From positions 2,366-66,365 of the forward strand of contig FR902233.1 of NCBI GenBank assembly GCA_000438415.1: a DNA stretch of 64,000 bases, in the 5' to 3' direction. This DNA is from Clostridium sp. CAG:628 (GTDB lineage: Bacteria > Bacillota_I > Bacilli_A > RF39 > UBA660). The notes below the pieces were generated by a model. The model did no database searches. It saw nothing but the letters and a program-made list of their open reading frames with translations, and was not told the DNA's origin. This document shows positions 27,924-30,531 of this stretch, one piece after another. Numbering within the stretch: the stretch's first letter is position 1; each line of letters begins with the position of its first letter. Both the position numbers and the translations under genes were made by a program.

Positions 27924-29519
27924 TTATAAGTTTTTAGTTAACTTTAAATTTTCCACTACTCCAGTACCCATATCTAATAAAACATCCGCATCTAATATTT
28001 CATTATATTTTCTATTATGTGAAATACTTATAATAGTGCCCTCATAGCCTCTAATTAGTTCATATATTAAATTAAGTGCTTCTTTATCAAGATGATTGGT
28101 AACTTCATCCAATATTAACACATTAGTTTTTAAAAGTGCTAGTTTTATAATAGCTAACCTAGTTCTTTCTCCAGGTGATAATTTAGAATAAATTTTATCT
28201 TTATCTTCATAACTAATACCTATTTTTTCAAGCAATGTAAACACTAAAGAATAATTAACATTAACCATATTTTCTGTAAGATATTCTATAACAGAATTAT
28301 TACCTTCTAACAAAGTATTTTGTGAAATATATCCCATTTTAACTTTAGAACCCACAATAACTTTTCCACTTATTGGTTCTATTTCTCCTAAGATAGTTTT
28401 GATTAAAGTAGTTTTTCCACTTCCATTATAACCGTTAATTTGTAGTTTCACACCATACGGTATAGTAAGGTCTATGGCTTTAGTTTTAAACGTATCATAT
28501 CCACATATAACTTTATCTAAAACTATATCTTTATTTCCCTTGTCATCATCTAACTCAAAAAATACATCAATTGGTTTCTTTTCCTCAAAATTAGGAACAT
28601 CTAATTTATCTAAAATTCTAGTTATTCTCTTAATATTAGAAGTGCTTGTTCTTTCTTTAGCGTAATTGTTAGCTATCTTATCATTATCGTTATGCGCTCT
28701 TTTAGTATTACCAGAACTCACCCATCTCTTAGCCTTCTCTAATTCACTTTTAAGCCTTTCCTTTTCTTCTTTAGTTTTATAATATTCTTCTCTTTTTCTA
28801 ATATATTCATTCTCTTTAGTAATTAAATAATTATTATAAGACATATTATATTCCTTAATTTTACCATTACCTAATTCAAATATTTTATTTACTATATTAT
28901 TAAGAAAAAACTCATCATGTGACACAATAATCATTTTTTTATTGCTTTTCTTTAAATATTTTTCTAACCAAGTTATTGCTTCTATATCTAAATTATTAGT
29001 AGGCTCATCCAGTAATAATATATCTCTATTAGAGATTAACAACTCCATTAATAATACTTTGATTTTTTCTCCACCAGATAATGTTTTAATTTTAGTATTA
29101 AGTGATGCACGCAAGTTTAGTCCATTTTTTATAATTTCTAAATTACTTTCAAAATTATATCCATCTAAACTTAAAAATTCATTATAAAGAAGAGTATACT
29201 CTTCCATTTTATCTTCCGTTAAATCTAAAGATAATTTATCTAAAGTACTTTCTAATTCTTTAATTTTAGTTACTTCTTCAATATATTCAAATATAGAACA
29301 TTCATAATACTTTTCTTCAATTTCCTGTTTCAAATAACCAATTGTTTCGCCGTCTGTTTTAACATTTCCTTTATTATTGGATATAGTTTTCAAAAGCGTA
29401 CTTTTTCCACTTCCGTTTTTTCCTACTAAACCAACTTTATCTGCAGTATTTAATTTAAAAGATACATTATCTAATATTATATTCCCATTATATTCCACTT
29501 TTACATTATTAACTATCAT
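27924..29519 (-). CDS. ABC-F family ATPase (tandem ABC domains, no TMD; EttA/ARE-like)
   Basis: Two complete NBDs (GKNGSGKST..LSGGEK..LLLDEPTNNLD; GYNGSGKTT..LSPGER..LILDEVTNHLD) separated by a charged linker. The start is placed at the MIVNN ATG (29519) with a GAGGAG RBS. The upstream in-frame M at 29585 lies inside the E1-like gene. Confidence 0.8.
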   Translation of the reverse strand: MIVNNVKVEYNGNIILDNVSFKLNTADKVGLVGKNGSGKSTLLKTISNNKGNVKTDGETIGYLKQEIEEKYYECSIFEYIEEVTKIKELESTLDKLSLDLTEDKMEEYTLLYNEFLSLDGYNFESNLEIIKNGLNLRASLNTKIKTLSGGEKIKVLLMELLISNRDILLLDEPTNNLDIEAITWLEKYLKKSNKKMIIVSHDEFFLNNIVNKIFELGNGKIKEYNMSYNNYLITKENEYIRKREEYYKTKEEKERLKSELEKAKRWVSSGNTKRAHNDNDKIANNYAKERTSTSNIKRITRILDKLDVPNFEEKKPIDVFFELDDDKGNKDIVLDKVICGYDTFKTKAIDLTIPYGVKLQINGYNGSGKTTLIKTILGEIEPISGKVIVGSKVKMGYISQNTLLEGNNSVIEYLTENMVNVNYSLVFTLLEKIGISYEDKDKIYSKLSPGERTRLAIIKLALLKTNVLILDEVTNHLDKEALNLIYELIRGYEGTIISISHNRKYNEILDADVLLDMGTGVVENLKLTKNL

Positions 29520-30531
29520 ATTTAGCACACTCCTCACATGTATTATTTTTACTCCAATTGATAATCTGTGTTTCATATGTTGCAAAATTAAACATCATTG
29601 TTTTACCTTTTAAATTATAACTTATATAATTATTAAAGTATTTCACAATTTCATTTGTAATTATAGATGAAATCATTGCACACATTGGTCCATATGATGG
29701 AACAACTTTAACATTCTGTAACGGAATATCTGTCGTTTCTTTATCTATACATTTTAAACAAGCAGTTTCGTGTGGAATAACAAATGGTCCTATCATTGCA
29801 ATGTGTTCTGCAAAACCTGCAAAAATAACGGGTTTATTTTCATTAACACAAATATCATTGATTAACCTTCTAATAACTCTAAATGGTTTATCCAATGTAC
29901 ATATAACAATATCACATTCCTGTACTTCATGCAATATTTTTTCTTTGTTATCTATCATAATATTCTTAATAACAATATTTCCTTTTAATTTGCTAGCTAA
30001 CACTTCAGTTTTATTTTTTCCCACATCGTTTTCTGAATACGGATATTGACGTATTAAATTACTACATTCTACTATATCGTTATCCACCAAAATAAAATTT
30101 TCAAACCCTGCTCTTGAAAGCATAAATGCGACATTAGCGCCTACTCCACCTAATCCTAAAATTAATATTTTTTTATTAGCAAATAATTCTTTATTTTGTT
30201 TAAAATCATTTGTAAATAATGAAAAAAATAAATCTTGTCTACTGTATTTGTTATCACATAATGCCTCATATTTTTCATTTTCAATAATCAATTTTTCTTC
30301 AAATAAATAGCTAATTACATCTTTAAGTTCAGATTTGCTCACATTCGTTTCTTTAGAAACTTTTTCTATAAGCTTTTCTTCATTAATTGGTTCTTTCAAG
30401 TTTTCAATTAACAATAAAAATACATCGCTTTGATACTCTATTTCTTTACCAGTTTCTTTAAAGTTTCCCATTCTTACTACTTTATTAATTTTATCCACAT
30501 AAAATGGTTTTGTTGTATTTAGTATAAGCAT
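29509..30531 (-). CDS. RRE (PqqD-like) domain fused to E1/ThiF-like adenylyltransferase (MccB/PaaA-type RiPP enzyme)
   Basis: The N-terminal ~100 aa carry a PqqD/RRE-like pattern (VFLLLIENLKEPINEEKLIEKVS...LKDVISYLFEEKLI). The E1 nucleotide-binding motif is ILGLGGVGANVAFMLSRAGF..LVDND. There is a C-terminal Cys tetrad (CLKC...CEEC). A strong AGGAGG RBS is present. Confidence 0.65.
   Translation of the reverse strand: MLILNTTKPFYVDKINKVVRMGNFKETGKEIEYQSDVFLLLIENLKEPINEEKLIEKVSKETNVSKSELKDVISYLFEEKLIIENEKYEALCDNKYSRQDLFFSLFTNDFKQNKELFANKKILILGLGGVGANVAFMLSRAGFENFILVDNDIVECSNLIRQYPYSENDVGKNKTEVLASKLKGNIVIKNIMIDNKEKILHEVQECDIVICTLDKPFRVIRRLINDICVNENKPVIFAGFAEHIAMIGPFVIPHETACLKCIDKETTDIPLQNVKVVPSYGPMCAMISSIITNEIVKYFNNYISYNLKGKTMMFNFATYETQIINWSKNNTCEECAKYDS

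Follow-up and report, generated by a model that had tools for sequence, protein, structure and literature searches.

Organization of the Locus

Three genes lie in tandem on the (-) strand of the window, by which is meant the whole 64,000-nt stretch of DNA from Clostridium sp. CAG:628 that was analyzed. They encode a candidate precursor peptide of 21 residues, a protein of the ThiF/E1 superfamily (hereafter E1), and an ABC-F ATPase. The features of the locus are as follows, given from 5' to 3' on that strand.

30689..30717 (-): promoter-like site (TTTACA-17 nt-TATAAT, TG upstream of it); a consensus match some 45 nt upstream of the start codon of the peptide
30651..30656 (-): ribosome-binding site AGGAGG of the precursor ORF, read from the sequence
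30577..30642 (-): candidate precursor-peptide gene of 21 codons, MKINVKKVTVAKFSCHVDQHC, recognized by its conservation upstream of E1
30547..30574 (-): hairpin AAAGCUCA-UUAAU-UGAGCUUU (30554-30574) with a U-rich tail, resembling an intrinsic terminator or attenuator and conserved in position
29509..30531 (-): E1 gene, whole ORF, encoding a ThiF/E1 protein of 340 aa; its ATG is preceded by AGGAGG
[quoted passage not shown]
29509..30246 (-): ThiF-like adenylation domain and Cys4 site of E1, residues ~96-340 plus the stop codon; assigned from PF00899, the MccB alignment, and invariant residues
27924..29519 (-): gene for the ABC-F ATPase, with its ATG at 29519 and a product of 531 aa; 11 nt of overlap between its start and the E1 stop

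The original prediction for this DNA concerned E1; it overlooked both the precursor-peptide gene 45 nt upstream and the operon link to ABC-F.

Besides ABC-F, the neighboring genes in the window encode a PlsC-type acyltransferase, a hybrid kinase, HtrA, and AbiD, and only ABC-F is conserved with the module. The hybrid histidine kinase and the PlsC-like acyltransferase were rejected as module parts, and HtrA as a leader peptidase, since each is adjacent in only a few loci. The gene for the hybrid histidine kinase is found beside ABC-F in loci that lack E1 as well. Anti-phage defense was considered as a function on account of AbiD, which is encoded two genes upstream, and was also rejected: PADLOC gave only generic matches to the E1 core and an ABC ATPase, and AbiD is not co-conserved. 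A CBASS Cap2-type E1-E2 fusion was discarded as well, as the PADLOC models match only residues ~110-270 with at most 59 bits and the protein has no E2 domain. The cluster contains no dedicated exporter or leader peptidase, though these are usual in most RiPP antibiotic or signal clusters. In more distant loci encoding the CHVDQxC peptide (see below), the peptide and E1 genes are found without ABC-F, beside a gene for an M50-like membrane protein or an ABC-exporter-like gene.

The E1 Enzyme and Its Relatives

The Pfam ThiF model (PF00899) matches E1 over residues 103-332 only (E=1e-43). About 100 N-terminal residues therefore fall outside the E1 model, as had been claimed from the sequence at the outset. 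The motifs quoted there were all located in the 340-aa ORF, namely GLGGVGANVAFMLSRAG at residues 126-142, LVDND at 148-152, and ECSNLIRQ at 155-162, together with the cysteine tetrad formed by C258-x-x-C261 and C332-x-x-C335. Among 23 E1 homologues the Gly-loop (G126/G128/G131), D150, D152, N158, Q162, K174, and D214 are invariant, and R161 and the four cysteines are kept in at least 90%. The residues of the ATP and Mg sites are thus intact, being either invariant or at least 90% conserved, and the features of the E1 superfamily (Gly-rich loop, Arg finger, and the Lys and Asp for ATP and Mg) are all present. The four conserved cysteines form a Cys4 site of the MccB kind, the first CxxC aligning with that of MccB, and zinc binding is predicted. 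Conservation in the same 23 homologues extends to the N-terminal 100 residues (N5, K8, Y11, R20, G22, N23, F24, K29, and P48). Public metagenomes contain more than 110 E1 protein clusters with 41-99% identity, and the E1 ORF is therefore not a chance ORF.

In a phmmer search against the PDB, MccB was the best solved relative of E1 (E=1.7e-35, 126 bits, alignment from residue 61), followed by ThiF and MoeB at ~59-60 bits and PaaA at 55 bits. The features aligned between E1 and MccB include GKNKTEV, NLxRQ, the Asp of TLDKP, and the first CxxC. Structure prediction and a Foldseek comparison, which the original prediction had proposed as a check, gave a full-length AF2 model with a pLDDT of 90. 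This model superposes on MccB with a TM of 0.80 over ~354 columns spanning both domains and on PaaA with a TM of 0.72, whereas ThiF and MoeB reach 0.60 over the core only. The predicted architecture, that of MccB and PaaA rather than of ThiF and MoeB, is borne out by these bit scores and TM values. One of the next-nearest relatives of E1 belongs to a microcin C-like cluster that also encodes an MFS transporter, methyltransferases, and an AdoMet decarboxylase.

The N-terminal domain was also modeled alone (first 100 residues, pLDDT 87) and consists of four short strands followed by three helices. The best 13 matches of this isolated domain in the PDB, as ranked by Foldseek, are all RRE-bearing RiPP enzymes, and those named include McbB (McbBCD), ThcOx, MccB, MadB, MibB, lanthipeptide dehydratases, TbtB, PqqD (TM 0.55/0.58), and PaaA. 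The earlier assignment of an RRE or MccB-type peptide clamp agrees with these matches. A sequence-only profile of residues 1-100, searched against the PDB with its members searched against Pfam, gave sub-threshold winged-helix matches, including MccB (E ~0.5) and a lasso PqqD chaperone (E 0.76). By its modeled architecture, E1 is most likely an RRE-fused maturase of the ThiF-like adenylyltransferase (TLAT) kind found in RiPP pathways.

The Candidate Precursor Peptide and Its Putative Expression Signals

The promoter-like site matches the consensus at 11 of 12 positions, the best score in the region, and its function is presumed from this match. Orthologous loci were found via the enzyme alone, and the 17 considered here are those with an intact E1 5' end. 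All 17 have a small ORF upstream of E1, preceded in most of them by a GGAGG-type ribosome-binding site and in a few by a weaker one (AAGGAA, AGGTGG). The same small ORF followed by an E1 gene was found in 43 more metagenome loci.

The encoded peptide is nearly constant in length (20-22 aa in the 17 loci). Its basic N-terminal half follows the leader consensus M-K-[FI]-x-[VI]-[KR]-K-[LVI], represented in the window by V-K-K-V at residues 5-8, and its C-terminus is the heptad C-H-V-D-Q-x-C, directly followed by the stop codon. A similar leader motif is seen in a Brevibacillus peptide, MKIQAKKVE.... C-H-V-D-Q and the final Cys are invariant in 17/17 loci, with codons that vary synonymously (TGT/TGC, CAT/CAC, GTA/GTT, GAC/GAT), and the heptad is kept even where the enzymes are only 28-34% identical. 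The penultimate residue varies between N, H, and R, even within the window's own species, and the last residue is Cys in every locus. The coding pattern of the peptide occurs once in the window against an expectation of 0. From its position and conservation, and by analogy with known systems, the 21-aa peptide is taken to be the substrate of E1. Its two invariant Cys, together with the His and Asp, would also fit a metal-binding product.

The hairpin begins 3 nt past the peptide stop codon. In the window it is weak (8 bp with 3 G-C pairs; fold z = -1.0, not significant alone), and a simple terminator scan of the region did not call it. The case for a genuine element comes from conservation and not from the window's own fold: the peptide-E1 spacer holds a perfect hairpin of 7-17 bp with U-rich sequence in 19/19 loci, with stems that differ in sequence.

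The ABC-F Gene

The ABC-F protein has two ABC_tran domains and no membrane domain. Its best NCBIfam model is NF000355 (ribosomal-protection-like ABC-F), with 360.2 bits against a cut-off of 380, and an orthologue with 56% identity carries the NCBI name 'ribosomal protection-like ABC-F'. The characterized subfamilies YbiT, VmlR/ExpZ, Uup, and EttA all score ~190-208 bits, and none is close. ABC-F lies directly 3' of E1 in 20/20 genome loci and in 31/31 metagenome loci with downstream sequence. Moreover, the E1 stop and the ABC-F start overlap in every locus of the clade with room for this, though the flanking genes differ, and the pairwise identities of the two proteins co-vary (r=0.90).

ABC-F orthologues without E1 are also known (61-69% identity), and ABC-F was therefore rejected as a dedicated partner found only with E1. 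These E1-less genes have only ~65 nt upstream and no leader. In one case a strain-level deletion has removed the peptide gene and most of E1, with ABC-F retained. The peptide-E1 module is dispensable, and this deletion pattern is as expected for an accessory product with a retained resistance gene. Since E1-less orthologues exist, ABC-F may instead be a lineage-wide housekeeping gene whose linkage to E1 is only a frozen operon junction. The role of ABC-F is most simply read as ribosome-level self-protection or that of a partner protein, in which case the product would act on translation.

ARE-type ABC-F proteins such as OleB, CarA, LmrC, and VarM are encoded in antibiotic biosynthetic clusters. 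Such proteins have no membrane domain, and their genes are transcribed together with biosynthetic genes, as is apparently the case here. The products of those clusters are macrolides, lincosamides, or streptogramins rather than RiPPs; the window ABC-F further differs in that it also occurs without biosynthetic genes and scores just under the NF000355 cut-off.

Comparison With Known Peptide-Modifying Systems

MccB, the E. coli microcin C7 synthetase (PDB 3H5N, 6OM4), likewise consists of an N-terminal clamp/RRE followed by an E1 adenylation domain, and the Gly-loop, NLxRQ, GKNKTEV, catalytic Asp, and CxxC are common to both enzymes. In both systems a short precursor gene lies immediately upstream with a hairpin between, so that mccA-mccB provides a precedent for the layout of precursor gene, hairpin, and enzyme gene (PMC4231749). 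The precursors differ, however: MccA has 7 aa with Asn at its end, whereas that of the window has 21 aa with Cys as its invariant last residue. In all known MccA peptides the final residue is Asn, the side chain of which forms the succinimide needed for the N-P bond (PMC12250964, PMC6385645). Because the precursor here ends in Cys, the succinimide route is unavailable; 'MccB-like architecture' was a correct description, but it would be wrong to speak of 'microcin C-type chemistry'. An intein-like or MccB-like reaction that depends on Asn at the penultimate residue was rejected too, because this position is N, H, or R. Finally, the window operon has an ABC-F gene in place of MccC/D/E/F genes, and MccC/D/E/F-like genes were found in none of the loci.

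GrcB, EnfB, and IndF were compared with the window system by their descriptions rather than their sequences. GrcB, from the GRC RiPP cluster of Streptococcus pneumoniae, is an RRE-ThiF-like enzyme that links Glu35 to the C-terminal Cys39 of its substrate as a thiolactone, with His34 adjacent (PMC12596934). At the level of pattern, GrcA resembles the window peptide (H16-V-D18...C21) in having a C-terminal Cys, an acidic residue upstream, and a His nearby. GrcA is 39 aa long with Glu at -4, however, and the window peptide 21 aa with Asp at -3. Also encoded in the grc cluster, which is linked to quorum sensing, are two radical-SAM enzymes, a stand-alone RRE, and a transporter; radical-SAM or transporter genes were found in none of the loci.

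EnfB, which makes enterofaecin in Enterococcus faecalis, and IndF of S. pneumoniae belong to minimal TLAT RiPP systems, in which the C-terminal carboxylate is adenylated and captured intramolecularly. EnfA also has 21 residues, and the basic leader motif (V/I)RKA that EnfB requires resembles the leader of the window peptide. The EnfA cluster, like the present one, has no leader peptidase. The cores of these substrates, by contrast, are hydrophobic, rich in Trp (WWIVI, NWYFI), and free of Cys, and ABC-F is absent from the EnfB/IndF clusters, which encode several transporters, a peptidase, and regulators. PaaA of pantocin A synthesis shares the RRE and E1 architecture noted above and acts on side-chain carboxylates. 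Its sequence is far more distant than that of MccB, and its precursor has 30 aa with a central Glu-Glu-Asn motif.

Proposed Pathway

The locus is probably a three-gene operon that makes a RiPP of the TLAT kind. In the pathway proposed, the strong promoter would drive transcription of the 21-codon precursor gene. The hairpin and U-tract would probably stop most transcripts and so leave precursor mRNA in excess, while those that read through would provide the enzyme, as in mccA-mccB. The peptide would dock by its basic N-terminal half on the N-terminal RRE or peptide clamp of E1, and the E1 domain with Mg-ATP would adenylate a carboxylate in the C-H-V-D-Q-x-C heptad. An intramolecular nucleophile would then displace AMP, resulting in ring closure. 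Attenuation by the hairpin, as well as the site and type of the peptide modification, should be regarded as presumptive.

The preferred chemistry is a thiolactone. By analogy with GrcB, this could join the side chain of Asp18 to the thiol of the C-terminal Cys21, an assignment put forward tentatively and with rather less than even chances. An AIP-like thiolactone between the C-terminal carboxylate and the Cys15 thiol is the less probable arrangement and should be considered unlikely. Other captures of the activated carboxylate, as an imide, an amide, or a nucleotide adduct, are possible.

Alternative Explanations

In a true microcin C-type system, E1 would add a nucleotide to the peptide C-terminus via an N-P bond to give a Trojan-horse inhibitor of an aminoacyl-tRNA synthetase. 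This would agree with MccB as the nearest solved relative by sequence and fold, with the mccA-mccB-like order of precursor, hairpin, and E1, and with the next-nearest relative in a microcin C-like cluster. It is nevertheless improbable, as the known MccA peptides all end in Asn (PMC12250964, PMC6385645) and the last residue here is invariably Cys with N, H, or R before it, the peptide has 21 aa and not 7, and the MccC/D/E/F-like genes are missing throughout. Because the precursor has no C-terminal Asn, the system does not appear to be a microcin C synthetase. The least credible of the alternatives is a sulfur-carrier E1 (ThiF/MoeB/TtuC-like) or a non-catalytic TOMM 'C-protein' scaffold (SagC/McbB type), which is already contradicted. 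Apart from the Pfam ThiF match, it draws on weak NCBIfam matches to ThiF, MoeB, and SagC-family models, but these all score far below their cut-offs (101 vs 275 bits for TIGR02356, 81 vs 377 for TIGR02355, and 55 vs 188 for the SagC-family model TIGR03603). No ThiS/MoaD-like gene was found among the ORFs within 22-38 kb, in agreement with the original prediction, and the window neighborhood and more than 50 related loci contain neither a ThiS/MoaD nor a YcaO gene. Furthermore, the ATP site of E1 is intact, unlike that of TOMM scaffolds, and its RRE domain and MccB-level similarity also speak against this reading.

The small ORF could also be only a regulatory leader or arrest peptide that gates read-through of the hairpin into E1 and ABC-F, with E1 acting on some other substrate. 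Its terminator-like hairpin, 3 nt past the stop, is conserved in 19/19 loci, an invariant C-terminus is typical of arrest peptides, and ARE-type resistance ABC-F genes are often attenuated via leader ORFs. A purely regulatory role is still very improbable: an RRE-E1 enzyme needs a peptide substrate and there is no other conserved candidate, distant loci have the same peptide and E1 without ABC-F, the leader motif is common to proven or likely TLAT substrates, and the E1-less ABC-F genes, with their ~65 nt of upstream sequence, have no leader. Regulatory and substrate roles of the small ORF can coexist, as they do for mccA. There is similarly little likelihood that E1 conjugates the activated peptide C-terminus, in a ubiquitin- or Pup-like manner, to a target protein or RNA, for example ABC-F or the ribosome. 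Membership in the E1 superfamily, the tight translational coupling and co-inheritance of E1 and ABC-F, and the lack of exporter and peptidase genes, as would suit an intracellular role, would be consistent with conjugation. Against it, no E2 or ligase partner is present (the PADLOC Cap2-type E1-E2 models match the generic core only, as stated above), the architecture is that of the MccB/PaaA group of peptide-cyclizing and peptide-nucleotidylating enzymes, and ABC-F persists without the module in other strains.

Significance

The preferred reading, a TLAT-type RiPP operon, appears to describe a previously undescribed natural-product system of uncultured human-gut bacteria. Within the library of papers searched, there was no match either for the CHVDQxC motif or for the combination of a ThiF-like RiPP with ABC-F. 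ThiF-like RiPP maturases have been a field only since ~2022-2025 (GrcB, EnfB, IndF), and each characterized member gave a new ring-forming reaction. At 21 aa, the candidate substrate in the present case is very compact and well defined, and two Cys, a His, and an Asp are among the residues of its invariant heptad. Conservation is higher in this heptad than in the enzyme, a sign that the product or the target is under strong constraint.

The family lives in uncultured Bacilli with small genomes from human and animal guts, from which almost no natural products are known. The operon fusion with ABC-F provides a testable hypothesis on the target, namely the ribosome, and could illuminate an uncharacterized ABC-F subfamily. 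A more specific proposal is that the CHVDQxC peptide, once matured by E1, is a translation-directed RiPP, with the co-translated ABC-F serving at the ribosome as its dedicated immunity factor or working partner; this is speculative and more doubtful than not. If true, a ThiF-like RiPP pathway would here be paired with ABC-F for the first time, and C-terminal Cys chemistry, for example a reverse thiolactone, would be new in such a sequence context. The strain-level deletion that removed the producer genes but spared ABC-F would then represent a classic producer/cheater polymorphism in a prevalent uncultured lineage of the human gut.

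Architecture of the E1 Enzyme

The E1 gene of the window (G+C ~25%) is found between a short peptide gene and an ABC-F gene, in the following arrangement:

30717-30689, minus strand: near-consensus promoter TTTACA-17-TATAAT with an upstream TG, before the peptide ORF
30577-30642, minus strand: putative precursor-peptide ORF, 21 codons, MKINVKKVTVAKFSCHVDQHC, 45 nt upstream of the E1 start
30554-30574: hairpin AAAGCUCA-UUAAU-UGAGCUUU with a U-rich tail, between the peptide stop and the E1 ribosome-binding site
29509-30531, minus strand: E1 ORF, 340 aa, ATG start with AGGAGG seven bases before
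27924-29519, minus strand: ABC-F ATPase, 531 aa, its start overlapping the E1 stop by 11 nt

All motifs quoted in the original prediction are present in the E1 ORF, namely the Gly-loop segment GLGGVGANVAFMLSRAG (residues 126-142), LVDND (148-152), ECSNLIRQ (155-162) and both cysteine pairs (C258-x-x-C261 and C332-x-x-C335). The first ~100 residues were also correctly placed outside the E1 fold, since the Pfam ThiF match (E=1e-43) is confined to residues 103-332. Across 23 aligned homologues (26-79% identical), the Gly-loop, D150, D152, N158, Q162, K174 and D214 are invariant and R161 and the four cysteines are kept in at least 90%; conservation was also seen in the N-terminal extension.

Public annotation of the orthologues is just "ThiF family adenylyltransferase". 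Among PDB sequences the microcin C7 synthetase MccB matched best (E=1.7e-35, 126 bits), in an alignment that begins at residue 61, within the N-terminal domain, and includes an identical GKNKTEV, NLxRQ, the catalytic Asp and the first CxxC; PaaA scored 55 bits. An alignment-based AlphaFold2 model (pLDDT 90, pTM 0.87) was compared by Foldseek, as the original prediction had proposed, and MccB ranked first (TM 0.80 over ~354 columns, spanning both domains) and PaaA second (TM 0.72). The predicted PqqD-type RRE or MccB-like clamp was tested by modelling residues 1-100 in isolation (pLDDT 87), which gave four short strands followed by three helices. The top 13 PDB matches of this model were all RiPP-pathway enzymes (Foldseek probabilities 0.66-1.00, TM 0.47-0.66; lower-ranked matches were noise), among them a McbBCD complex chain, ThcOx, MccB, the lanthipeptide dehydratases MadB and MibB, TbtB, PaaA and PqqD itself (TM 0.55/0.58). 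That such enzymes (McbBCD, ThcOx, MccB, PqqD and others) carry RREs was reportedly established by Burkhart et al. in 2015. Searches by sequence with a profile of the N-terminus gave winged-helix hits below threshold (MccB E ~0.5, a lasso PqqD chaperone E 0.76).

A sulfur-carrier E1 was rejected: ThiF and MoeB reached ~60 bits each in the PDB search and matched the core alone (TM 0.60), and no NCBIfam model reached its cut-off (ThiF 101 bits vs. 275; MoeB 81 vs. 377; SagC family 55 vs. 188). The earlier assignment of the protein as a putative MccB/PaaA-type peptide-modifying enzyme with an RRE and a Cys4 site is supported because of the sequence and fold matches to MccB and those of the isolated N-terminal domain.

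A Conserved Putative Precursor Peptide

The 21-codon ORF is preceded by the ribosome-binding site AGGAGG. Orthologous loci were fetched by the enzyme alone, and an ORF of the same type (20-22 codons) was found in all 17 loci having an intact E1 5' end, with the consensus M-K-[FI]-x-[VI]-[KR]-K-[LVI]-x-x-x-K-F-[ASE]-C-H-V-D-Q-[NH]-C-stop. Different loci use different synonymous codons for the invariant residues (TGT/TGC, CAT/CAC, GTA/GTT, GAC/GAT, AAC/AAT), therefore selection acts on the peptide rather than on an RNA motif. A degenerate coding pattern for the C-terminal heptad, CHVDQxC-stop, has one occurrence in the window, where 0 were expected. A public metagenome scan matched 66 contigs, and in 43 of these the pattern ends such a small ORF with an E1 gene ~70-160 nt on. 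The heptad is retained in MKIEIKKVEKAETTCHVDQRC, MIKSVKKVKAINDTPLLCHVDQNC, MIKNIKKMTKEEAIAVTCHVDQNC and MTTIEVKPVEEVSTTCHVDQHC, whose E1 enzymes are only 28-34% identical, thus the core is more conserved than its enzyme.

The sole variable heptad position is the penultimate one (N/H/R; Arg was seen in one distant family), and the window's own species has ...QHC as well as ...QNC (E1 89-100% identical). His occurs at loci with an E1 89-100% identical to that of the window and Asn at 96-97% loci (codons 20-21, window 30580-30585; loci L100, L108, L115, L144 and L148 vs. L109, L125, L126 and L138). Two MAG loci (L014:6043-8530 and L017:5971-7031) have E1 broken into two ORFs; L014 also has a broken ABC-F gene and a shorter peptide ORF, MKFACHVDQNC. 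Either the modules are in decay or the assemblies contain errors.

The window hairpin is unremarkable in isolation (z = -1.0) and was not called by a simple terminator scan. In each of the 19 spacers examined, a U-tract accompanies a perfect hairpin of 7-17 bp, with differing stem sequences. The same order of precursor gene, hairpin and E1 gene is found in mccA-mccB, where an intrinsic terminator makes the precursor transcript abundant, with a minor amount of read-through (PMC4231749).

In about one third of the orthologous loci, a divergent gene for a ~210-aa Cys-rich protein lies just upstream of the peptide gene (L011:5115-5753(-), L092:1104-1736(-), L081:4127-4765(-) and 15 others); it is absent from the window. 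The protein matched no Pfam or NCBIfam family, with weak Methyltransf_23/UPF0146 similarity only, and its conserved K-Y-G-Y-T-C-D-[IV]-[ND]-Q-I-Y-C oddly echoes C-H-V-D-Q-x-C of the peptide. It may be a tailoring enzyme missing from the window's lineage. An AbiD/Abi_2 abortive-infection gene (31867-32799, minus strand; PADLOC AbiD 192 bits, Pfam Abi_2 E=3e-40) is located two genes upstream of the peptide, flanked by a small PspC-like ORF and HtrA. The AbiD-HtrA pair also lies near the module (peptide gene and E1) in locus L018, and general co-conservation with the module is absent. A 643-aa ORF of the window (22571-24502, minus strand) had zero Pfam or NCBIfam matches.

Linkage to the ABC-F Gene

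The ABC-F protein contains two ABC domains and lacks a membrane domain. Its top NCBIfam model is "ribosomal protection-like ABC-F" (360 bits vs. a cut-off of 380), and it is roughly equidistant from YbiT, VmlR/ExpZ, Uup and EttA. E1 is followed directly by ABC-F, with overlapping or abutting frames, in 20/20 genome loci with downstream sequence; the adjacency was also found in all Logan loci and in all 31 metagenome loci with an E1 at least 39% identical. In the apparent exception, L145, the ABC-F start is present and is followed by an assembly break. Genes around the module vary by locus (gatCAB/priA, dagK, hybrid kinase, KsgA-like/TetR-MMPL and others), and the pairwise identities of E1 are correlated with those of ABC-F (r=0.90).

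Functionally, ABC-F is most simply read as giving self-protection at the ribosome, which would imply a translation-directed product, a doubtful to at best possible outcome. Alternatively, the operon junction is frozen and ABC-F is a lineage-wide protein that may be a bystander. The dependence is one-way only: ABC-F occurs without E1, in orthologues 61-69% identical. The E1-less locus L089 and the E1-bearing L092 are syntenic, the indel consisting of the ~210-aa gene, the peptide gene and E1. Moreover, the ABC-F of L005, which follows peptide and E1, is 99.1-99.3% identical to those of L088 and L091, which have ABC-F only. DNA identity between these loci starts within the E1 3' end (L005:1943-2013 vs. 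L088:3458-3500 and L091), and a decayed C-terminal remnant of E1, "...EIINWN*", persists in L088 and L091 as the ABC-F 5' leader. Individual strains can therefore lose the peptide gene and E1 and keep ABC-F. The module is thus accessory, and ABC-F is a resistance gene that was retained or else a housekeeping gene that has the module as a neighbour.

Beside ABC-F are a hybrid histidine kinase whose N-terminus is polytopic and an acyl-/acetyl-transferase (window 24925-26682 and 26740-27864, both minus strand; also L001, L004, L088 and L091). Both recur whether or not E1 is present; the synteny is a feature of ABC-F and not of the RiPP module.

Related RRE-ThiF Clusters

The E1 orthologous group is sharply delimited, with ~110 clusters before the bit score falls from 295 to 242. 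Beyond it come other RRE-ThiF systems: a Pseudalkalibacillus microcin C-like cluster (MFS transporter, methyltransferases, AdoMet decarboxylase), a Brevibacillus pair with the peptide MKIQAKKVESVRTTAVAA and an RRE-M50-like membrane protein, and a group with 45-aa peptides ending in ...NRC beside SBP_bac_5, MFS and Cupin/JmjC genes. In the last group (L084:572-709, L087:2438-2575), acidic peptides ending in ...VNRC or ...INRC are followed by SBP_bac_5, E1, MFS and Cupin_8/JmjC; this is another uncharacterised RRE-ThiF cluster type, and a C-terminal Cys is again present, as in GrcA.

Distant CHVDQxC loci have an M50-like membrane protein and a hydrolase, an ABC-exporter-like gene close to PepF and MFS, or else plasmid relaxase genes, neighbours that are typical equipment of secreted RiPPs. 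In one of them (L131:394-1763), a CHVDQNC peptide and E1 pair adjoins MobC- and relaxase-like genes, which suggests carriage on a plasmid or other mobilisable element.

Proposed Mechanism and Significance

Judged by architecture, conservation and precedent, the following scheme is probable. The short transcript would supply an excess of precursor, whose basic leader (residues ~1-8) would dock on the RRE. The near-constant length of 20-22 aa and the fixed spacing from leader motif to Cys15 suggest a ruler, for which recognition of fMet-MccA by MccB is a precedent (PMC6385645, PMC6495379). A carboxylate of the heptad would then be adenylated by the E1 domain and AMP expelled by an internal nucleophile, a mechanism common to all characterised relatives (PMC12596934, PMC12250964, PMC12150305). 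Since microcin C chemistry requires a C-terminal Asn, it was excluded as the default reading. The closest precedent for the chemistry is GrcB, in which Glu35 is adenylated and the C-terminal Cys39 thiol closes a thiolactone, with His34 adjacent (PMC12596934); the invariant H16-V-D18-Q-x-C21 of the window peptide has the same elements. An Asp18-Cys21 thiolactone is tentatively suggested as the product. An AIP-like thiolactone from Cys15 to the C-terminal carboxylate is unlikely, and the remaining probability falls to other outcomes (imide, amide, nucleotide adduct or metal-binding product).

Published surveys describe 27,400 RRE-ThiF fusions in RefSeq and precursors of the WWIII, NWYFI, VEGR, NICxxxK, CxxxC and GxxQY types. 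In the literature searched, no paper contained "CHVDQ" and none linked ThiF-like RiPP enzymes with ABC-F. The orthologous loci come from hosts recorded as "Tenericutes" or Bacilli MAGs, and an E1 99-100% identical to that of the window is present on human-gut contigs. Together the loci form a clade of probable ThiF-like RiPP systems, not described before, in uncultured Bacilli of the gut. Both the enzyme architecture and its logic are known; the precursor class and the unprecedented invariant operon fusion to ABC-F are new. The inferred function may involve new ring chemistry and possibly a ribosomal target, and the lead is cheaply testable.
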